A stretch of 64,000 bases of DNA from an uncultured Chthonomonadaceae bacterium (GTDB lineage: Bacteria > Armatimonadota > Chthonomonadetes > Chthonomonadales > CAJBBX01): assembly GCA_964519955.1 (NCBI GenBank), contig CAZFLM010000014.1, forward strand, positions 40,673 through 104,672, in the 5' to 3' direction. Shown piece after piece: positions 33,961 to 52,188 of the stretch. Made by a program: the position numbers and the translations under genes. Position 1 is the first letter of the stretch. Every line of letters begins with the position of its first letter. A model generated the notes under the pieces. It did no database searches and was not told where the DNA came from. It saw nothing but the letters and a program-made list of their open reading frames with translations.

Positions 33961-34776
33961 CTAGTTGGCGGGAGGAGCCCCACCGCGTCCGCCGCCGCCG
34001 GGTCCACCGGGGCCACCGGCGCCGCCGCGGCGCCCGCCGCCGAAGCCACCCATGCCCATGTTCTCCGGGAACTTGAACGGCGTGCCCTGCATCTCCTTGA
34101 ACTTCTTCTGCTGCTCGGCCGTCAGGACCGCCAGCACCTTCGCGTCGGTCGCCTTCTGGAACTCCTGCATCTTCTTGCGGGACTCCTGGCGCTCGGCGTC
34201 GGTCATGTTCTGCATCGCCTGGAACCCGCCCTGCGGCATCATGCCTTGGGCCTCCTGCATGCGTGCCCGCTGGACCTCACGGATCTGCTTGGTCTGCTCG
34301 TCCGTGATCTTCAGGGCGTCGACCACATCCTTGCGGCTGAGAGCCTGGGTACCGGCCTGCTGCAGCTCGAGTTCCTTGTACCGTTTGATCTGTGTGCTGT
34401 CCAGGATATCGGCGACTGCCTTGTCCTGGATCTCCTGCATCTTGGCCCGCATCTTCTGCATCTCGGCCGGGTCGGGCTGCTGGCCCTGCTGCCCCTGGAA
34501 GCTCTGCATGAGTTCCTGGCGCGCCTTCTGGACCTCTTGCTGCTTCGGCTCGACCTTGGCGATCTGCGGGTCCGTCATCTTCAGCTCGGCCTGAACCTCC
34601 TTGCTACGCAGCATGGAGAGCCCGCCGCCGCGCATCCCCATCATTCCGCCCTGTCCGCGCCGGCCACCACCCGCGCCACCGGGACCACCAGGACCGCCCG
34701 GCCCCTGCGCGGTGGCGGCGAGCGCAGAACCCACCAGCAGCGCAGTCGCACACGCCGCCAACAGTGTTCGCTTCAT
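33961..34776 (-). CDS. Secreted LTXXQ-repeat protein (Spy/CpxP-like periplasmic family) with Gly/Arg-rich termini
   Basis: I chose the start ATG at 34776 (GGGAGGAAG RBS; signal peptide MKRTLLAACATALLVGSALAATAQG). Four LTXXQ-like motifs are present: LKMTDPQ, ILDSTQ, LKITDEQ, VLTAEQ. Confidence 0.65.
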   Translation of the reverse strand: MKRTLLAACATALLVGSALAATAQGPGGPGGPGGAGGGRRGQGGMMGMRGGGLSMLRSKEVQAELKMTDPQIAKVEPKQQEVQKARQELMQSFQGQQGQQPDPAEMQKMRAKMQEIQDKAVADILDSTQIKRYKELELQQAGTQALSRKDVVDALKITDEQTKQIREVQRARMQEAQGMMPQGGFQAMQNMTDAERQESRKKMQEFQKATDAKVLAVLTAEQQKKFKEMQGTPFKFPENMGMGGFGGGRRGGAGGPGGPGGGGRGGAPPAN

Positions 34777-34989
34777 TGGTCTTCCTCCCTGATGCTCGAT
34801 GCCCGGGTCGCGCAGGCAGGTCGCTCGGCTTCGCGACGTGCGCGGCGGCGAACGGCCCATGGAAGGCGGACCGCGCGCATTCACGGACGAGTGGCGACCC
34901 CGGATTTCGGCACTATCGCAGATATGACCCGCTCGCCAGGCACGCGGTAACACGCCCGGCCCTGTGAAGGATGCAGCAGGAACACGAAA

Positions 34990-35027
34990 GAGAGCGCGCC
35001 CCGCCGCGTATCGCGAGGCGCGCTCTC
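34990..35027 (-). terminator. Rho-independent terminator after the pilin-like/small-TM module
   Basis: An 11-bp stem, GAGAGCGCGCC / GGCGCGCTCTC. On the minus strand it is followed by CTTTCGTGTT. Confidence 0.6.
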
Positions 35028-35045
35028 ATGCCGACCATGCGGCGC

Positions 35046-35258
35046 TTACGGCTTGGCGCCGGGGGTGGCGTCCACCGGCAGACGCCGGCGTCCCACGTTG
35101 CCCTTCCGCAGCTCGTCCTGGAAGTTGTACATCCCCGGCCGCACCGCGATGTCCTTGTCGACCGTCGGCGGCGCCGACCTGCCCACCAGCTTCCAGCCCG
35201 CGACGCACACCACGACGAGCAGCACGATCACGATGGCGGCAGGCGCCCACTTAGGCAT
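35046..35258 (-). CDS. Small single-pass membrane protein (module partner of the prepilin-like gene)
   Basis: I chose the start ATG at 35258 (MPKWAPAAIVIVLLVVVCVAGWKLV...; GGGAGGAGG about 10 nt upstream). The layout is paralogous to the ORF at 36282-36500. Confidence 0.45.
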   Translation of the reverse strand: MPKWAPAAIVIVLLVVVCVAGWKLVGRSAPPTVDKDIAVRPGMYNFQDELRKGNVGRRRLPVDATPGAKP

Positions 35259-35304
35259 GTCCGCCACACCTCCTCCCTAGCCGCACTGCGCGGCAGCAGC
35301 GCAG

Positions 35305-36108
35305 CTAGTCGCGCAGACCCCACGAACCGTCAGCGCGCTTGTACGGAATGCCCCACAGCTCGTCGCGGCCCTGGTATGGCCCGGCATCCGCCACCAACCA
35401 GTCCAGGATGGCCTTGCCATCCAACTGGTTGCCACCAAGCTGGACGCCGGCGGAGTTGAGGAGCGGCCTCGCGTGCACGGCCTTGGCGTGTCCGTCTGCC
35501 CAGGCAGCGTTCACGGTCATGTTGTGCCGAACTTGTATCGGGGAATCGAAGAGGCCGAAGCCGGCGCTTCCGCCAGGCAGCGTCACCGTGGAGTCGGACC
35601 AGGCCGACGTCTCCGCCGGGAACTCGACGTCCGCCATGGACTTCACAGGCCGGTCGGTCTCGCCCGGGAACAGCGCGTTCGGATCGCCGTTGTCGATCAG
35701 CGCGTAGTTCGGCTGGTAGCTCACGACGCTAACGGGCGGACTGGCAACGCACGGCGCCGGGAGACCGATGACGCTCATGCCCACGATGAAGTCGAGCTTG
35801 GTCGAGTCGGAGGGGCAGAGCATGACCTGCGAGTTCTTCTGGTAGGGCTGGATCTCTTGCATCGCGGTCATGATGCAAGGGGTGGTCTGTACGGCGAGGT
35901 AGATGTTAATAGGGTAGCACTCGTCGTAGTCCTGAACGTACATGACGAGCGCCGTGCCGGTCTGCTTCAGGTTGCTCAGACAGGAGGCAGAACGCGCTTT
36001 CTCACGCGCCTGGGCGAACACAGGGAACAGGATCGCCGCAAGTATAGCGATGATGGCGATCACGACGAGCAATTCGATCAACGTAAAGCCGCGTCTGGAT
36101 AGCCTCAT
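35305..36108 (-). CDS. Prepilin-type N-terminal cleavage/methylation domain protein (DUF1559 / H-X9-DG-like pseudopilin family)
   Basis: 267 aa. Shows [39 protein letters not shown] and the C-terminal [11 protein letters not shown]. An AAGGAGAGAAGG RBS precedes it. Confidence 0.85.
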
Positions 36109-36281
36109 TGCCTTCTCTCCTTGTCGATTGGCACACGCACCGACCGGTCACGCCCCAGGGGCTGGCTGGCGTCACGCTGCCGTCGAGGTCACTCTTGCCT
36201 TGGTATTGCCTCCTTGATCAGAAGAACAGAAGCCCCCGGCCGAGCGCCTGCCCGGCCGGAAGCCCTGGTACGACCCATACC

Positions 36282-36500
36282 CTACCTACTGCCTACACCG
36301 TTCTCGCGGATGTGCTGCCGCAGCTTCTCCTGGTCGATTACGACAGTGCCACTCGTCGGGCCTTGGGACTCCTGATGCCGCCAACTGGCCCACTTGTACA
36401 GGCCGATCAGCAGCAGCACCGCAACTGCCACGCCCAGCAACACCGGCGGTTTGGCCCACTTCTCGATCGGGCTCTCTTGGCGTCGTGATTGGGTTCGCAA
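36282..36500 (-). CDS. Small single-pass membrane protein (second copy of the module partner)
   Basis: 72 aa with a TTG start 9 nt after the upstream stop. Shows ...IEKWAKPPVLLGVAVAVLLLIGLYKW..., the same KWA + TM layout as 35046-35258. Confidence 0.4.
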   Translation of the reverse strand: MRTQSRRQESPIEKWAKPPVLLGVAVAVLLLIGLYKWASWRHQESQGPTSGTVVIDQEKLRQHIRENGVGSR

Positions 36501-36509
36501 GGTAGCCCT

Positions 36510-37340
36510 CTACGGATTGCTGCGATACCAGCTACCGTCGGCGTTTTGATGGGCGATGCCCCACAGCTCGTACCGCTCGCGGTACGGCCCCGCGTCGCTC
36601 ACCTTGTACAGCTTCAGCACCTGCCCGTCGAGGCCGGCGCACGTGTAGGCAACACCGGAGCTGTCGACGACTGCCCTGGTATGCACGGGCTTGGCATGGC
36701 CGTCGCAGAAGTTGGCGTTGGTCACACCCGAGTGCAGGCCGCTGATCGGGGACTGGAACGTCGAGCAGGAGAAGTCGGACGGCTTGCGAACCGGCATCAG
36801 CGAGGGAACGCCGTCGGAGATGAGCGCCGTCTCCACGCCGAACTCGATCGATGCCACCTTCTTCGCCGCGCGGCTGTCGTCGGTGCCGAAGATGTTGCTC
36901 GGCGAGCCGTTGTCGACGACCGCGAAGTTGAAGTTGTAGGACAGGTAGCGGACGGGCGGGCTGCTGGTGCACAGGCCCGGGAGGCCCGTAGCCGCCGAGA
37001 TGTTCGCCCAACCCGCCACGAAGTCGACGGCTCGCGGGCTGGAGGGGCACTGCATCACGTTCGCGTTCTTCTGGTACGGCGAGATCTCATGGTAGAACGT
37101 CATCGTGCAGGGCGACGAGCCGAGCGCCATGTAGAGGTTGATGGGAAACGTCTCGTCATAGTCCTGCGTGTACATCAGCGTGGCGAGGGAGGACTGCTTG
37201 AGGTTGCTCAGACAGGAGATCGCCCGCGCTTTCTCTCTGGCCTGTGCGAACACGGGGAATAGAATCGCCGCCAAAATGGCAATGATGGCGATCACGACGA
37301 GCAGTTCGATCAGCGTAAAGCCACGTCTGGATAGCTTCAT
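36510..37340 (-). CDS. Prepilin-type N-terminal cleavage/methylation domain protein (DUF1559-like), paralogue of 35305-36108
   Basis: I chose the start ATG at 37340 ([39 protein letters not shown]; AAGGAGA RBS). The C-terminus has FCDGHAKPV ... [23 protein letters not shown]. Confidence 0.85.
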
Positions 37341-37655
37341 TACCCTCTGTCTCCTTGTTGGCCGGCGGACGAACACGTCCCTATGCGCCTTCGCCCCTGG
37401 TTCCGGCTTCGTTGCCGTCGCACTAGCGGGAATACGTCGGATCCCTCCATCACGAAGAAGCGGGCAACCACCACCGCGCCACAGTCGGCGCGCAACCGAT
37501 CACCACGCACGCGAATGGTGCCCTCGGTCCATTCTAGCAAGGCGACTGACCGGTGTCAAGGAGCAACCGCGGACCCCGGTAACAAGAACGGGTACCGAAC
37601 GCCACAGGCGCCCGATACCCGCATCAGTCCTTTGTCGCTTTGGGCGACCGACCAC

Positions 37656-38522
37656 CTATGCGCCGCCCTCGGCTCCCAACACCAGGTTGTCGATGAGCCG
37701 GGTCTGGCCCACGAACGCGGCAACCGCGAGCAGCGCGCCGTCGTCGCCCACCGCGGCGAGCGGCGCAAGGGTCTCCGGGTGCACGACCTCCCAGTACTGC
37801 ACGTGCACGCCGGCCGTCGCGAGGATGCACGCGATCCCTGCCTCACGGATCGCCTTCGCGGAGCGCTCGCCCGCCTGCCACGCGTCGCGCGCGGCCCGCA
37901 GGCTGCGGCTGAGCACCAGGGCGCGGGCGCGCTCGTCCGGCGACAGGTACACGTTCCGCGAGCTGAGCGCCAGACCGTCGGCCTCGCGCACGATCGGGCA
38001 GACGACCATCTCGACCGGCACGTTGAGGTCGCGCACCATGCGCTTGAGCACCGCGCACTGCTGCGCGTCCTTCTGCCCGAAGTAGGCGCGGTCCGGCTGC
38101 ACCAGGTTGAACAGCTTCAGCACGACCGTCGTCACGCCGCGGAAGTGCCCGGGGCGATACTGGCCGCAGAGCCCCTGGGAGACGCTCTCCTCGACGACGT
38201 ACGTCGATGCGCCCTCGGGGTACATCGCCACCGGCTCCGGCGCGAACACGGCACCCACCCCGGCACCCGACAGCAGCTCGACGTCACGCTCGAACGGGCG
38301 CGGGTACTTCGCCAGGTCCTCGGTGGGCCCGAACTGGATCGGGTTCACGAAGATGCTCGCCACGGTCACGTCGCACTGCGCCACGGAGGCGCGCGCCAGC
38401 GAGAGGTGCCCCTCGTGGATCGCGCCCATCGTGGGCACCAGGCCTACCGTCTGCCCCTTGTCCAGGCCGCGGCGCCACTCGCGCAGCTCGCCCACCGTCC
38501 TCAGTATCCGGATCTCACCCAT
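37656..38522 (-). CDS. panC: Pantoate--beta-alanine ligase
   Basis: 288 aa. Shows VPTMGAIHEGHLSL and IFVNPIQF. Confidence 0.92.
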   Translation of the reverse strand: MGEIRILRTVGELREWRRGLDKGQTVGLVPTMGAIHEGHLSLARASVAQCDVTVASIFVNPIQFGPTEDLAKYPRPFERDVELLSGAGVGAVFAPEPVAMYPEGASTYVVEESVSQGLCGQYRPGHFRGVTTVVLKLFNLVQPDRAYFGQKDAQQCAVLKRMVRDLNVPVEMVVCPIVREADGLALSSRNVYLSPDERARALVLSRSLRAARDAWQAGERSAKAIREAGIACILATAGVHVQYWEVVHPETLAPLAAVGDDGALLAVAAFVGQTRLIDNLVLGAEGGA

Positions 38523-47070: not shown

Positions 47071-48330
47071 ATGCCCTTCTTCCACTACGAGGCCGTCGAC
47101 AGCGGCGGCAAGCAGATCTCGGGCACGATGAACGCGACGGCAGAGTCGGATGTCACGACGAATCTGACGGAGCGCGGTTTCACCCAGGTGACGATCTTCC
47201 CGCCGCGCGGCGCCGCCAACGGCACCGCGAGCAGCCCATCCAACCGGTCGATGAGCATGAAGGCCCAGCCGCAGGCCGCGCCTGTCGCAGCGCCGCGGTC
47301 GCCGGACGAGCCGCGCAAGATGACCGCGAAGCCGAAGGACAGCGCGCTCTTCTACCGCCAGCTCGCCGCCCTCGTGCGCTCAGGCATCTCCATCTTCCAA
47401 GCGCTCGACAACCTGGGCCCACGCACCACGCAGCCCGCCTACCGCTTCGCCGCGAGGGAGATGGCGGACGCCACGCGCAACGGCGGCCCGATGTCGGAGG
47501 TGATGGCACGCCACCCGTCGCTCTTCCCCGACCACGTGGTGGCCGCGGTGAAGGCCGGCGAGACCGGCGGCTTCATCGAGGTCGTTCTGGACGAGATCGG
47601 CTACGAGTACGAGCAGCACACCGCCTTCTACAAGGGCATGGCGATTCCCACAATCCTGGTGATCCAACAGCTCTTCGCGATCGCCGTTGCCCAGCCGCTG
47701 TTCCCGACGCTGTTCCCGCTCTTCCAGGTCGCCAACTACCTGATCGCCGTCGGGCGGAACACCGTCATCGTGTGCGCACTCATCTACCTGGCGCGCCTCT
47801 ACACCAGGTGGCTCTGCAGACCCGAGAACGAACAGAGGCGCCATCGAATGCTCCTCAAAGCGCCCATCTTTGGCGATCTGGCGCGCCAGAGGGCGCTTGC
47901 AGCCTTCGTCAGGATGATGCGCCGCCTCTACGGCGCGGGGATCGGCCCGATCGGTACCTGGGAGGGCGCAATGCATGTGCCGGGCAACGCCATCATCCGG
48001 GACAAGCTCGTGGACGCATACGGCCTCGTCCGCAGCGGAGTGCCGATCCACGAAGCGTTCTCGACCACCGGCCTCTTCGCGAACGAGATGGAGCAACTCC
48101 TGGCCACGGGCTTCGTGACCGGCGAGGTCGTCGAGACGTTGGACCGCGTGGCCGAGTACTACCAGGACAACGTGGACCGAGCGTTCAGGAACGCGCGGTT
48201 CACCATGTGGCGCATCGCCATCTGCACCATGATCATCCTCATCGGAGCGACGCTGATCTTGATGACCAAGACGTACTTCGAGGGGATCTTCAAGACGGTC
48301 GAGGACTGGTTCCCCGAAATGAAGGGTTAA
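47071..48330 (+). CDS. Type II secretion system F family (GspF/PilC-like) platform protein, paralogue 1
   Basis: 419 aa. PilC-type N-terminus MPFFHYEAVDSGGKQISGTMNA..., two T2SSF-like repeats (LFYRQLAALVRSGISIFQAL...; LAAFVRMMRRLYGAGIGPI...) and TM helices. Confidence 0.8.
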   Translation: MPFFHYEAVDSGGKQISGTMNATAESDVTTNLTERGFTQVTIFPPRGAANGTASSPSNRSMSMKAQPQAAPVAAPRSPDEPRKMTAKPKDSALFYRQLAALVRSGISIFQALDNLGPRTTQPAYRFAAREMADATRNGGPMSEVMARHPSLFPDHVVAAVKAGETGGFIEVVLDEIGYEYEQHTAFYKGMAIPTILVIQQLFAIAVAQPLFPTLFPLFQVANYLIAVGRNTVIVCALIYLARLYTRWLCRPENEQRRHRMLLKAPIFGDLARQRALAAFVRMMRRLYGAGIGPIGTWEGAMHVPGNAIIRDKLVDAYGLVRSGVPIHEAFSTTGLFANEMEQLLATGFVTGEVVETLDRVAEYYQDNVDRAFRNARFTMWRIAICTMIILIGATLILMTKTYFEGIFKTVEDWFPEMKG

Positions 48331-48350
48331 CGCCGGAGCGCGCCTCTCAC

Positions 48351-49553
48351 ATGCCGCAGTTCATCTACGTGGCGAAGGGACGAGACGGAGGCACGGTGTC
48401 CGGCTCCGCCGAGGCGCCGAACTCCGCGCTCGCGCTCGGCCGCCTGCGCGAGCAGGGGCTGAACGTCGAGACCATCCGCTGCGCGCGCCCGGAGAACGTA
48501 GGCTCCGCCTGGCTGGAGGCCCTCCGGCGCGAGGTGATCTGGCCGGTGCGCTACCGCGTGCGGCCGGACGAGGTCGGCGTCTTCCTCCGCATCCTGCGCC
48601 TCTGCTGGAAGCACAACCTGCCCATCCAGGAGGCGCTCGGCCACCTCGCGCGCTGCACGCGGAACCGGCACATGGCCGACGTGCTGCAGGATGCCTACCA
48701 GTATGTATCGGAGGGCGGCCGCCTCTCGGTGCTGATGGCTGCGCGCCCCTGGGTCTTCCGCCCCGAGCAGATCGAGATGGTGGCGTCGGCTGAGGAGGTG
48801 GGCGGTCTCGAGCGCGCGCTCGACGAGCTGATCGTCCGCGTCGACGTCGACCTGGAGCTGCGCCGGTTCCTCTTCCCGCTGACCGTGACGTGGTGGGTCA
48901 TGCTTGCCATCGCCTGCCTGACCCTCGGGCAGAGCGGGTTGACGCTGCGCATGCCCGCCGCCGCACGCATCTACCTCCATGGCTTCGGCCTGGCCGACGT
49001 CCTCGACACGCTCGGCTTCACGCTGCTCGTCGCCGGGCTCGTCTGCGCAGTCATCGCCGCGTTCAGGGTGGCAGCATCCTTCAACCCCTCGGTTGCCCGT
49101 GCCTGGGCGATCCTGCGCCGCACCATCCCTCTGCTCGGCGGCATTCAGCGCTCCTTCACCGCCGCACGCTTCTGCCGCACCTTCGCCTGCACGTTCGGCT
49201 CCGGCCTCACCCTGGGTCCGGCGATTCGCGCGGCGGGGCGCTCGTCCGGCGACGCCGAGCTGGAGGACGCCGCACAGCGAGTTGCGGTCGACACAGGCTA
49301 TGGCGCTCCTCTCGCACATTCCTTCGCCCGCACGAAGCGCTTCCCGCCGGAGGTCATCAGCTACCTGCAGACAGGCGAGGTGTCCGGGCGCGTCGACGAG
49401 CTGATGAACCACGTGGCCGAGCAACTCGAGCGCGACGCGATGTTCCAGATACACAGGCTCACCATCGGTGTGGCGTTTGTGGTGGTAATGTCGCTGCTCG
49501 GACGGTGCATGGTGGCGGTCGGGATGCCCGCGTCGCCGCACCGGCCCGTATAA
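48351..49553 (+). CDS. GspF/PilC-like platform protein, paralogue 2
   Basis: I chose the start ATG at 48351 (MPQFIYVAKGRDGGTVSGSAEAPNSALALGRLREQGLNVETI). Two T2SSF-like repeats are present. The upstream part of the track ORF was rejected. Confidence 0.75.
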   Translation: MPQFIYVAKGRDGGTVSGSAEAPNSALALGRLREQGLNVETIRCARPENVGSAWLEALRREVIWPVRYRVRPDEVGVFLRILRLCWKHNLPIQEALGHLARCTRNRHMADVLQDAYQYVSEGGRLSVLMAARPWVFRPEQIEMVASAEEVGGLERALDELIVRVDVDLELRRFLFPLTVTWWVMLAIACLTLGQSGLTLRMPAAARIYLHGFGLADVLDTLGFTLLVAGLVCAVIAAFRVAASFNPSVARAWAILRRTIPLLGGIQRSFTAARFCRTFACTFGSGLTLGPAIRAAGRSSGDAELEDAAQRVAVDTGYGAPLAHSFARTKRFPPEVISYLQTGEVSGRVDELMNHVAEQLERDAMFQIHRLTIGVAFVVVMSLLGRCMVAVGMPASPHRPV

Positions 49554-49773
49554 CGGCGGCCAGCCGCACTCGCACCGTCGCTCCCCTACTGCCGCGCCCC
49601 GCACCTGCCGAGCATCCCAGTAGGGCGCATCCGCATTTGTACCAGGCGCCTCACCGGCGCGCGGCAGGAACTCGCCCCCAGAGCCGCTAACTGGTGAGCG
49701 TCCACGTTGAGTGTAGGCCCCGCACGTTTGGTGAGCCGGCAGCAGACAGGGCCGCAGATAGGCAGAGGTCACC

Positions 49774-51039
49774 ATGCCCGACTTCGCATACATCGCCAAA
49801 GACCGCACCGGACGCGTCGTCCAGGGCACCATCCAGGCCGACAACTCGGCGCTCGCCATGGGCCGGGTGCGCGAGATGGGCTACGAGGTGGAACGCCTGC
49901 GCATCGTGGCCCCAAGCCGCCGGAACGTGGGCCTCGCCCGGCGCTTCGCGGAGAGCTTCGTCTATCCGGTGGTCTCCGGCGTGCCGCTGAAGGTGCTGGC
50001 CATCTTCTACCGCCAGCTCGCGACCATGATCAACGCGGGAATTCCGCTGTACCAGGCGCTGACGACGCTGCAGCACCAGACGCGCAACGCGAAGCTCGCG
50101 GCCATCACCGAGGATGCCAGCCGCCACGTGCTGGAAGGCGGCCCGCTCTCGGAGGTGATGGACCGCTACAACTGGGTGTTCAACGAGCTGCAGGTCGAGA
50201 TGATCCGCGCGGCGGAACACGGCGGCATGCTCGACCAGATGCTCAACCGCATCGCCGACTACCTGGAGCAGGAGCTGGCGCTCCGCCGGCTCATCAGCCG
50301 CCTCACCATCTACCCGAAGATCGTCCTGTTCATCGCGATGATGATTCTGGGTAAGTCGTGCTTCACCGACTTCGAGCACCCATTCGTGCCGGCGCTCGCG
50401 CGCCTCGTCCTCGGCCAGATCGGCAAGGACGCGTACACCCCGGTCGACTACTTCTGGGACACCGCCGGGTTCCTGGCGATCCTCGGGCTCTGCGTCTTCG
50501 CCGTGGTCGCGTTCTGCCGCCTCACCCTGTTCCAGAGCGACGCCGCGCGGATGGGCTACGAGCGCTTCAAGCACGCCATACCGGGCTTCGGCACGGTGTC
50601 GCGGCAGTTCGCGCTCGCCAAGTTCGGGCGGGCGTTCGGCGCGCTCTACGCCGGGGGCCTGCCGCTGAACACCGCCATCGGCATCGCGGGCCGGGCGAGC
50701 GGCAGCAAGGTCATCGGCCAGGCGACGCAGCGGGCCGTTCGGGCCGCCGACCGCGGCGCGACGCTCTCACAGGCGTTCCGCGAGACGCAGGCGTTCCCGC
50801 ACATGGTCCTCGACATGCTGGAGACCGGCGAGCGCACGGGCAATGTGGACGCGATGATGCACAAGGTCGCCGAGTACCTGGAGGGCGAGGCCGAGTCGAA
50901 GGCGCACATCTACTCCAACATCTTCGCGGTCGTCGTCGGCCTGATCGTTGCGATGCTCGTGGGCTATGCCATCATCCGGTTCTACATGGGCTTCGCGGGC
51001 GGCGTCGGCCAGGCAGTGAACGCCGGAGAGGGTGAGTAA
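49774..51039 (+). CDS. GspF/PilC-like platform protein, paralogue 3
   Basis: 421 aa. Shows [42 protein letters not shown] and [19 protein letters not shown]..., with two T2SSF-like repeats. Confidence 0.8.
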
Positions 51040-51042
51040 GCT

Positions 51043-52188
51043 GTGGCGCACGCACTGAGACTCAGGAAGCCCGAGATCACCGGGCCCATCCGACCGCCGC
51101 GCGCTGCGACGATTCCCCGCGCGATGTGGTCGGTGTTCGTGTCGCGCGGGCTGAGGCCGGCAGCTCCTGGCGTACGTCTGTCCGAGATCGCCGCGCTGCT
51201 TCGGTCGCTCGCCACGCTCGTCGGCGCCGGCATCCCGCTGTACCAGGCGCTGGACACGGCCTCGCGGCAGAACCACGCGCCGGTCGTCGCCGAGGCGCTG
51301 CGCCGGGCGGCCGACCGGGTGCTGGAAGGCGGCCGCATGTCGGAGGTGCTGGCGCGCTACCCGCACGTCTTCAGCGTGCTGCACGTCGAGATGCTGCGCT
51401 TCGCGGAAGAGGCCGGCAAGATCGACACGATCCTGGCGCTGCTGGCCGACTACGCGGAGCAGGAAGTGCGCCTCCGGCAGCTCGTCAGCCGCCTCACGAT
51501 CTACCCGAAGCTGCTGGCGTTCGTGGCCTACATGATCATCGGAAGCGGCTTCTACAACGGCTCCGCGTTCTTTGCCATCTCCCTCTGGGTCATCTCCGGC
51601 GACACGAACCGCTACCTGATGGACACGCTCGGCGTGCTGGCCGTGTTCGCGGTCCTGGTGTTCCTTGCGGTGGCCGTGTTCCGCGTTCTGCTGTTCTCGC
51701 GCCCGGCGGTCGCCCGAGCGTACGAGCAGCTCAAGATGGCCCTGCCCGGCGTGGGCGGCTGCTCGCGGCGATTCGCGTTCGCGCGGTTCGGCCGGGCGCT
51801 GGGCGCCACCTACGAGGCGGGCATCCCGATCTTCAGCGCCATCCGCATCGCCGGCGACGCCTGCGGGAACGCCACCATCCGGCAGGCGATGCAGGACATC
51901 GTGACCTACGTCGAGCGCGGAGCGACTCTCTCGCAGGCGTTCGGCGCGACGGGCGTGTTCCCCGGGATGGTGCTGCAGATGCTGGGTACCGGCGAGCAGA
52001 CGGGGAACGTGGACGCGATGATGTACAAGGTGGCCGAGTACCTGGAGGGGGAGGCAGAGACCAAGGCACACGTGAACGCCTTCATCTTCAGCGTGTCGCT
52101 CTACGCACTCCTCGCGCTGATCATCGCGTCGCAGATCATCGCCGCGTGGGGGCGCTATGCCGCCGGCGTCTCCGGGATGATGCAGTGA
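51043..52188 (+). CDS. GspF/PilC-like platform protein, paralogue 4 (lacks the PilC-type N-terminal domain)
   Basis: 381 aa. The GTG start is 3 nt after the paralogue 3 stop (the start is uncertain). [19 protein letters not shown]... and [23 protein letters not shown] are closely similar to paralogue 3. Confidence 0.75.

Follow-up and report, generated by a model that had tools for sequence, protein, structure and literature searches.

We analyzed a 64,000-nucleotide (nt) stretch of DNA from an uncultured Chthonomonadaceae bacterium (assembly GCA_964519955.1, contig CAZFLM010000014.1, positions 40,673 to 104,672; hereafter, the window), in which a two-gene module is present twice. Each module consists of a prepilin-type gene of the H-x9-DG family (pil1 and pil2) followed by a small gene for a single-pass membrane protein (sm1 and sm2). 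We found that each small gene is a dedicated, co-evolving partner of its pilin-like gene and that the two-gene unit is old and mobile within Armatimonadota genomes. In a sister clade, the pair is followed by a permease gene of the CAT/APA family, which is the strongest functional clue that we obtained and goes beyond the view taken in an initial annotation of this DNA.

Two pil-sm modules in the window

The window has a G+C content of 69%, and the nearest database relatives of its genes belong to the Armatimonadota, order Chthonomonadales. All four module genes lie on the minus strand, in the order pil2, sm2, pil1, sm1:

36510-37340, minus strand: pil2, 276 amino acids (aa), prepilin-type protein of the H-x9-DG family; AAGGAG Shine-Dalgarno sequence at 37351-37356, 10 nt ahead of the ATG
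36282-36500, minus strand: sm2, 72 aa, single-pass membrane protein; TTG start, 9 nt past the pil2 stop
35305-36108, minus strand: pil1, 267 aa, prepilin-type protein of the H-x9-DG family; AAGGAG Shine-Dalgarno sequence at 36117-36122
35046-35258, minus strand: sm1, 70 aa, single-pass membrane protein; 73 aa if translation began instead at the GTG at 35267

The four open reading frames (ORFs) given in the initial annotation were verified, as was the duplicated two-gene module that they form. The same annotation had reported pilin-like proteins of 267 and 276 aa with nearly identical first 38 residues; indeed, 37 of these 38 residues are identical, and the identity over the full length is 53%. 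No prepilin-type gene other than pil1 and pil2 was found in the 64-kb window.

The small genes encode a family of single-pass membrane proteins

In the NCBI record, sm1 (P0125) and sm2 (P0127) are annotated as hypothetical proteins. Their G+C content at the three codon positions (0.70/0.47/0.93 for sm1 and 0.64/0.45/0.77 for sm2) follows the pattern of the flanking genes, and this coding-type pattern was not seen in the overlapping alternative frames at the two genes. From its PKW N-terminus, the sm1 protein runs through a transmembrane (TM) helix, GWK, and a linker to the motif VRPGMYNFQDELRK and ends in a basic tail.

A profile made from eleven small ORFs retrieved 14 clusters in a word-indexed database, and a HMMER scan of 1.84 billion representative proteins (E <= 1e-3) returned 76 clusters, nearly all with proteins of 54-114 aa. 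With clusters defined at 50% identity, the family therefore counts at least 76 of them. The motif G-P-x-K-x-V-[HR]-P-G-M-Y-[DN]-[LFI]-R-x-E-x-x-K is present in 61 of the 84 collected family members, placed 12-20 residues past the single N-terminal TM helix, and a metagenome scan with the sm1 motif confirmed three loci. Searches of Pfam-A and NCBIfam gave no significant match for the small proteins (best E values 0.028-0.18, under the curated cut-offs), and their database homologues carry no precomputed Pfam domains.

We defined the sm1-type family as proteins of 55-110 aa with one TM helix near the N-terminus and the tail motif, encoded directly after an H-x9-DG prepilin gene. The sm1 protein has all of these features, including the motif and the position directly after pil1, and scored 66 bits against a sm1-type hidden Markov model (HMM) built without it. 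The sm2 protein shares the position and the architecture only. In the leave-one-out comparison, it scored 10.6 bits with the sm2-type HMM and 13.8 bits with the sm1-type HMM, and the best of 400 composition-matched shuffles reached 7.0 and 6.6 bits, respectively. BLASTP detected no similarity between sm1 and sm2, and what the two types still share shows up faintly in profile comparisons. On these scores, sm2 appears to be a divergent and weakly supported member of the small family.

Synonymous sites are saturated between genomes, and the ratio of nonsynonymous to synonymous substitution rates (dN/dS) was limited to the pairs with computable dS, for which it was 0.13-0.75 among sm1-type pairs and 0.15-1.08 among sm2-type pairs. 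The position, the length, the TM helix, and the tail pattern are kept across genomes whose G+C content at third codon positions (GC3) goes from 0.40 to 0.93, which would be difficult to account for unless the protein were under selection. In our view, sm1 is a real gene and sm2 is very probably one.

In the AlphaFold2 model of the small protein, a TM helix (residues 5-27, predicted local distance difference test [pLDDT] >90) is followed by a disordered linker and by a short, amphipathic helix of low confidence (46-56) over the motif. The hydrophobic stretch of about 19 residues, with aromatic flanks, suggests a membrane anchor and not a cleaved signal peptide, and the flank charges (+1.9 on the N side and +0.65 on the C side) mildly favor a topology with the N-terminus inside and the C-terminus outside. 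That the small protein is a degenerate pilin or a cleaved secreted peptide seems unlikely: it lacks both a conserved Gly at -1 and a Glu at +5, and the stretch of about 19 residues lies between Trp and GW[KR].

MAFFT consistently placed the sm2-type proteins on the leader, alpha1N, and alpha1C regions of the pilins, matching a basic N-terminus, a hydrophobic helix, and an amphipathic polar stretch. This alignment probably reflects compositional similarity; less probably, the small partners may descend, distantly, from a pilin cut down to its N-terminus.

Each small gene accompanies a pilin-like gene

The association between the two genes was evaluated on 80 related loci from species-representative genomes. 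A single-TM ORF of 35-130 aa beginning at most 120 nt downstream was found for 17 of 110 pilin-like genes. In a stricter comparison, a small single-TM ORF followed 14 of 80 pilin-like genes (17.5%) and, under the same rule, 10 of 459 controls (2.2%). The positive cases cluster among the close relatives of pil1 and pil2: with the exception of L005, a small ORF is present in every locus that reaches 50% identity. Small ORFs homologous to sm1 lie directly after the pil1 orthologues (L001-L004, L009, L015, and L081/82), and sm2-type small ORFs are found in L006-L008 and, in the same position as sm2, also in L086-L088.

The association also holds in the reverse direction. All the recovered small-gene loci have a gene with N_methyl and SBP_bac_10 domains ending 6-60 nt upstream, and the neighbors other than this pilin-like gene vary from locus to locus. 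Each small gene is thus a dedicated, co-evolving partner of its pilin-like gene. The initial annotation had taken the small ORFs for dedicated partners, and this idea stood up well: they are genuine and conserved genes with coding-type GC3, belong to a family of at least 76 clusters, and recur next to paralogous pilin-like genes.

Other small ORFs are found beside more distant pilin-like genes. Distant H-x9-DG paralogues precede a different set of loosely similar one-TM ORFs, which start with M-N-[LK]-basic-x-[IV]-[SN]-P and whose polar tails are not conserved (L001, 2460-3590; L003, 2671-3802 and 5157-6128; L006, 2941-3925; L030, 7478-8431; L046; L052; L059, 2186-2473). The members of this second group share the N-terminus and the TM helix only. 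This suggests that the theme of a pilin with a small TM partner is wider than the sm1/sm2 family.

The two-gene unit was duplicated long ago

We obtained a neighbor-joining tree of the pilin-like proteins, with bootstrap values out of 100. The pil1 protein of the window groups with L001-L003 and L081 (clade A, bootstrap 97/100), all with sm1-type partners and no adjacent permease. L004, L009, L084, L089, and L095, also with sm1-type partners, form clade B (100/100), and clades A and B join with a bootstrap of 99/100. The pil2 protein groups with L006-L008 in a third clade, hereafter the sm2 clade (100/100).

The type of small protein tracks the pilin clade without exceptions. Therefore, the two-gene unit was duplicated at least two times, long before the species split, and each partner diverged along with its pilin, so that the pair evolves as a unit. 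Judging from this tree, the duplication is ancient and not recent. The initial annotation had spoken of a tandem duplication: this describes the layout correctly, and it fails as an account of a local, recent event, given the 53% identity and the separate, bootstrap-supported clades found in many genomes. Indeed, both old clades occur in many metagenome-assembled genomes of Chthonomonadales. This window is the only place in which a pil2-type and a pil1-type module were seen to adjoin; elsewhere, different paralogous modules adjoin, three in L003 and two each in L001 and L006. The two-gene unit is both old and mobile within Armatimonadota genomes.

In clade B, the pair precedes a permease gene

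In clade B, the pil-sm pair is followed by a same-strand permease gene with AA_permease, AA_permease_2, and AA_permease_C domains. The Joint Genome Institute (JGI) annotation of this permease is basic amino-acid/polyamine antiporter of the APA family, and it belongs to the CAT/APA family. The permease-linked loci are nine distinct ones (L004, L009, L015, L084/85, L089/90, L091, L092/93, L094, and L095/96), and the gaps between the small gene and the permease gene range from -11 to about +100 nt, including -11, -4, +4, +6, and +16. The overlaps and the gaps of 4-16 nt indicate that pil, sm, and the permease gene form one operon. The metagenome Ga0209810 has a stand-alone clade-A module and, on a separate contig, a permease-linked one.

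This type of permease is widespread, with homologues of about 60% identity in Binatia, Acidobacteria, Elusimicrobiota, and other groups. Transporters of this kind are known to have single-pass partners: in the GkApcT-MgtS complex, a single TM helix with a cytoplasmic N-terminus packs on a CAT-family transporter, near TM5, and the 4F2hc and rBAT heavy chains are single-pass partners with extracytoplasmic domains (PMC5803215).

The pilin-like proteins

Both pil1 and pil2 begin with a prepilin N-terminus, MRLSRRG followed by FTLIE, with Glu at +5 and a hydrophobic helix. The N-terminus was recognized by PF07963 N_methyl (37.5 bits for pil1 and 37.0 for pil2, cut-off 21.2; E about 1e-9, 2.1e-9 for pil2) and by TIGR02532 (35.8 and 36.4 bits, cut-off 16.3). 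Their assignment to the DUF1559 type, made in the initial annotation, stands in part. PF07596 (DUF1559/SBP_bac_10) scored above its gathering cut-off of 23.3 bits, with 28.6 bits for pil1 and 30.6 for pil2, and the H-x9-DG motif is present in both proteins (in pil1, H195 to D205-G206), in the extended form H-x9-DG-H. However, the PF07596 match is not full length, as it covers profile positions 2-36 (pil1) or 2-37 (pil2) of 268, corresponding to residues 33-69, and leaves the head uncovered; moreover, TIGR04294 did not reach its cut-off of 19 bits (17.5 for pil1 and 11.8 for pil2).

Among 117 homologues, H195, D205, and H207 are invariant and G206 is nearly invariant. The cysteines C43, C78, C98, and C120 are nearly invariant in the same set and probably form two disulfides. 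The pilin-like proteins also have an acidic cluster, QDYDE, where alpha1 ends; together with the invariant H195, D205, and H207, it suggests a possible metal or ligand site. The C-terminal block DAGPY..ELWGI..ADGSW, already pointed out in the initial annotation, was recovered in both.

The AlphaFold2 model of pil1 (mean pLDDT 95.4, predicted template modeling score [pTM] 0.87) shows alpha1 as a long helix (residues 10-60) and a head rich in beta structure, in which the DG of the motif lies in the turn joining strands 198-203 and 208-215. A Foldseek search of the model against the Protein Data Bank (PDB) gave no match with E below 0.38, and the PDB sequence matches end at the N-terminal helix, at about residue 70. 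The name SBP_bac_10 implies a periplasmic solute-binding fold, which we rejected: the model consists of one helix and a beta-rich head, and there were no binding proteins among the Foldseek matches. Identity with GspG was likewise rejected (TIGR01710, 37.7 bits for pil1 and 33.9 for pil2, cut-off 88.85), as were the other Gsp, Com, and Pil equivalogs, whose scores were far under their cut-offs and whose matches were limited to the N-terminal helix. A tblastn search with pil1 against a plasmid collection returned no matches.

Candidate expression signals and neighboring genes

The region of the modules contains the following candidate signals:

37588..37622, minus strand: terminator-like hairpin after panC, from a consensus scan
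37531..37559, minus strand: sigma-70-like promoter candidate upstream of pil2 (TTGACA, 17-nt spacer, TG-TAGAAT)
36230..36265, minus strand: terminator-like hairpin after sm2 (16 bp, 11 G-C, 4-nt loop), with the T-poor tail CTGTTCTTCT
34990..35027, minus strand: terminator-like hairpin after sm1 (15 bp, 12 G-C, 8-nt loop), with the tail TTTCGTGTTC

The promoter candidate, identified by its consensus match alone (11 of 12 positions), is the sole promoter-like site within 34800-37800 and lies just downstream of the hairpin after panC. If it is real, the 5' untranslated region of pil2 would measure about 190 nt (37341-37530); an Rfam search over 34700-37800 gave no meaningful match, and no known riboswitch or leader was found in this long 5' region. 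A hairpin follows each pair, and for this reason each pil-sm pair looks like a bicistronic unit of its own. In this respect, the initial annotation, which had a single hairpin closing the pair of modules, was wrong: each module has its own, at 36265..36230 and 35027..34990.

Both pilin-like genes have AAGGAG 8-10 nt ahead of the ATG. The upstream regions, described in the initial annotation as similar leaders, are alike over about 25 nt around AAGGAG, together with a short GCGACGGCA block about 65 nt upstream, and differ in the rest. The most likely start of sm1 is the ATG at 35258 (70 aa), because the Shine-Dalgarno sequence GGAGGAGG (35269-35276) lies 10 nt ahead of it and the NCBI protein P0125 begins at the same ATG. 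With this start, the gap between pil1 and sm1 is 46 nt, replacing the 37 nt given earlier, and the gap of 9 nt between pil2 and sm2 is retained. The TTG start of sm2 has a weak Shine-Dalgarno sequence.

Outside the modules, four tandem paralogues of the GspF/PilC type (PF00482, E 3e-29 to 2e-52) were found 10-15 kb away:

47071-48330, plus strand: GspF/PilC paralogue
48390-49553, plus strand: GspF/PilC paralogue
49774-51039, plus strand: GspF/PilC paralogue
51043-52188, plus strand: GspF/PilC paralogue

A DnaJ/TPR-like ORF follows them, and it is unusual for four consecutive platform genes to be unaccompanied by an ATPase gene. A simple motif search of the whole window found no GspE/PilB ATPase, secretin, or prepilin (A24) peptidase. 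The earlier remark that no prepilin peptidase, ATPase, or secretin gene is adjacent to the modules therefore agrees with this pattern search and has to be qualified by the presence of the four GspF/PilC genes.

Just past the sm1 terminator, the gene at 33961-34953 (minus strand) encodes a secreted protein of 330 aa, rich in Gly, Gln, and Met and with GGPGGPGG repeats, for which Pfam gave a sub-threshold LTXXQ (Spy/CpxP-like) match (20.6 bits, cut-off 24.3); this gene was not seen beside the module in other loci. Farther away, a run of ORFs at 1014-7025 (minus strand) resembles genes of contractile tails or injection systems, as judged by eye from the N-terminal sequences; among them are a sheath-like ORF of 547 aa (4451-6094) and a tube-like ORF of 169 aa (3932-4441).

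Proposed function and alternative explanations

We propose that the pair forms a 1:1 inner-membrane, periplasm-facing complex, possibly involved in the capture or uptake of amino acids, and we consider the chances for and against this reading to be evenly balanced. The pilin-like protein, with its short basic leader and its cleavage/methylation site between G and FTLIE, would be anchored in the inner membrane by the hydrophobic alpha1 helix, and its beta-rich head of about 200 residues, probably braced by two disulfides, would be periplasmic. The small protein would contribute one TM helix, with a probably cytoplasmic N-terminus, and a periplasmic tail of 35-45 residues with a short conserved motif, which reads V[RH]PGMYD.R.E in sm1 and has diverged in sm2. 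Co-made in roughly equal amounts, the two proteins would assemble into a specific inner-membrane complex, with the sm helix beside the pilin alpha1 and the tail motif docked on the pilin head, and sm would hold, orient, or couple this head at the periplasmic face of the membrane.

The pair would then most likely serve the capture of amino acids (or related amines or peptides) and their hand-over to inner-membrane transporters or, alternatively, it may regulate or stabilize the transporters; the modules of the window would be stand-alone versions acting on transporters encoded elsewhere. A transport role is proposed because the clade-B pair opens a three-gene operon ending in a CAT/APA permease. 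We infer the topology, the physical interaction between pil and sm, and the transport role, and likewise the contact of the tail motif with the pilin head. The transport role, whose single source is synteny in the sister clade, is the weakest step.

A more specific version, which we hold to be decidedly unlikely, would make pil and sm the extracytoplasmic receptor half of an unrecognized binding-protein-assisted secondary transporter, composed of a pilin-anchored capture protein, a one-TM coupler, and a CAT/APC permease, with the modules of the window serving distant permeases. If true, the very large DUF1559/H-X9-DG expansions of Planctomycetota, Verrucomicrobiota, and Armatimonadota would for the first time have a function assigned to them.

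Several observations weigh against the proposed complex and its role in transport. A tblastn search of the window found no such permease, and no permease link was seen in clade A or in the sm2 clade. In Acidobacteria, the locus L097 has a permease homologue with no pil-sm pair upstream; the occurrence of permease homologues without the pair in other phyla implies that the pair is not an obligate transporter subunit. The pilin head matches no known ligand-binding fold. Most of the pilin-like paralogues, about 85%, have no small partner, and at L005 and L010-L013 the pilin-like protein shares the C-terminal head extension although no small ORF follows, so that the head is evidently able to function alone. 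For sm2, the sequence relation to the small family is weak, and dN/dS against L006-L008 is 0.54-1.08, with some values near 1.

The main rival explanation, which we judge unlikely, is that sm serves a type IV filament, or a machine similar to the type II secretion system (T2SS), as an adaptor for assembly or targeting: it would bind its cognate pseudopilin in the membrane and deliver it to the platform or keep it from the fiber, with no relation to transport. This would fit well with the complete prepilin motifs, including Glu5, a hallmark of filament-assembling subunits, and with the conservation of the partner where no permease is near (the window, L001-L003, and L081). The four T2SSF genes at 47071-52188 could be platforms, but they lie 10 kb off on the opposite strand, and no other locus showed such genes close to the module. 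To our knowledge, no component of type IV pili (T4P) or of the T2SS resembles a protein of 70 aa whose tail takes up about 40 residues; GspL/M/C and PilN/O, for example, are much larger. Armatimonadota do encode dozens of PulG-like proteins plus Pil machinery (PMC4072686), but only a minority of the paralogues have a partner, and the tight, repeated permease operon of clade B would be left unexplained.

The same operon could be read in another way, with sm as an accessory TM subunit of the permease, like MgtS or the TM helix of 4F2hc, that travels with the pilin gene by operon history, the copies in the window being leftovers on a distant permease. We regard this as very unlikely. The small gene abuts or overlaps the permease start in nine loci, and GkApcT-MgtS is a structural precedent; nevertheless, the small gene was never found by a permease without a pilin-like gene, it stays by the pilin-like gene in all the permease-free loci of three clades, and permease homologues in other phyla have no small protein. 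Moreover, the conserved part is the periplasmic tail motif and not the TM helix.

It is more improbable still that the small proteins are co-transcribed but functionally independent membrane peptides, with sm2 as an extreme case that is decaying or non-functional. In favor of independence, sm2 scores 10-14 bits against the family profiles, has dN/dS of 0.54-1.08 against L006-L008, and starts with TTG after a weak Shine-Dalgarno sequence; in addition, the small proteins evolve much faster than the pilins (about 30% identity against 72% between the window and L001). On the other side, sm1 is a strong family member with 66 bits in the leave-one-out comparison, the position, length, TM helix, and tail pattern persist over GC3 values of 0.40-0.93, the adjacency is strict both ways, and the type of partner co-segregates with the pilin clade.

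Relation to known systems

The pil1 and pil2 proteins share with the H-X9-DG/DUF1559 families of Planctomycetota, Verrucomicrobiota, Lentisphaerota, and Armatimonadota the prepilin N-terminus, the alpha1C stretch matched by PF07596, and the invariant H-x9-DG(H) hairpin toward the C-terminal part. Unlike these families, the subfamily of the window has an extra C-terminal beta extension (GPY..ELWGI..DGSW) and a gene for a bitopic partner. With the T2SS pseudopilins (GspG-K) and the type IV minor pilins, they have in common the leader, the cleavage site between G and F, Glu5, alpha1N, and a beta-sheet head, but their head has no Foldseek match to a solved pilin, and their genes lie outside a gsp/pil cluster. 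We know of no pilin or pseudopilin with a private 70-aa TM partner.

The order of the clade-B genes, which encode first a periplasmic protein, then a small membrane protein, and last a large secondary transporter, recalls that of the tripartite ATP-independent periplasmic (TRAP) transporters (DctP/Q/M) and of the tripartite tricarboxylate transporters (TTT; TctC/B/A). However, there is no sequence or fold relation to DctPQM or TctABC: pil is pilin-anchored and has no periplasmic-binding-protein fold, the small protein has one TM helix and not four, and the APC/CAT transporter works alone in other phyla. We rejected the modules of the window as a TRAP/TTT-like tripartite transporter, as there is no permease in the window and the three-gene arrangement is found only in clade B.

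A further comparison is the archaeal bindosome of Sulfolobus, in which sugar-binding proteins with class III pilin-like signal peptides are anchored and assembled for nutrient capture. The bindosome proteins are bona fide solute-binding proteins of ATP-binding cassette (ABC) systems with a dedicated Bas assembly system; in contrast, the pil head matches no solute-binding fold and no ABC transporter is linked to the module.

For the proposed role of sm, the pairs MgtS-GkApcT and 4F2hc/rBAT-LATs offer a similar case of a single TM helix, with the N-terminus inside, bound to a CAT/LAT-type permease (PMC5803215). There is no homology with them: MgtS is 31 aa long and has no conserved tail, and here the extracytoplasmic domain would come from a separate pilin-like protein.

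The H-X9-DG/DUF1559 families have many paralogues per genome and no known function (PMC10632474; PMC8567305). Planctopirus has 68 related paralogues, two of which are essential (PMC10632474), Tuwongella has 91-100, many of them detected in membrane fractions (PMC8567305), and Fimbriimonas has 79 PulG-like genes (PMC4072686). Planctomycete proteins with N_methyl and SBP_bac_10 domains are expressed and fractionate with membranes (PMC8567305).

In the literature searched, which was limited in extent, neither the small-partner family, nor the co-divergence, nor the pil-sm-permease operon is described. The view of the initial annotation that a dedicated small partner is undescribed thus agrees with this literature and with the absence of a Pfam or NCBIfam family, with one faint precedent: in one sentence on Tuwongella, the paralogue genes are said to be often flanked by signal-peptide genes (PMC8567305), which is the sole prior hint of partners that we found.

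Significance

In several phyla that have received little study, few paralogue families are larger than the H-X9-DG/DUF1559 prepilin-type proteins, which reach 68-100 copies in a genome. The present analysis adds the following: in one sub-lineage, these proteins always have a one-TM partner of their own, which diverges along with them and has a sharply defined periplasmic motif; the partners make up a family of small proteins, with at least 76 clusters, that neither Pfam nor NCBIfam contains; and in a sister lineage the pair shares a tight operon with a permease of the cationic amino-acid/polyamine type, which is the first functional lead for the family. These results are not yet a new mechanism and give a concrete, testable handle on a family that has long been without an assigned function.

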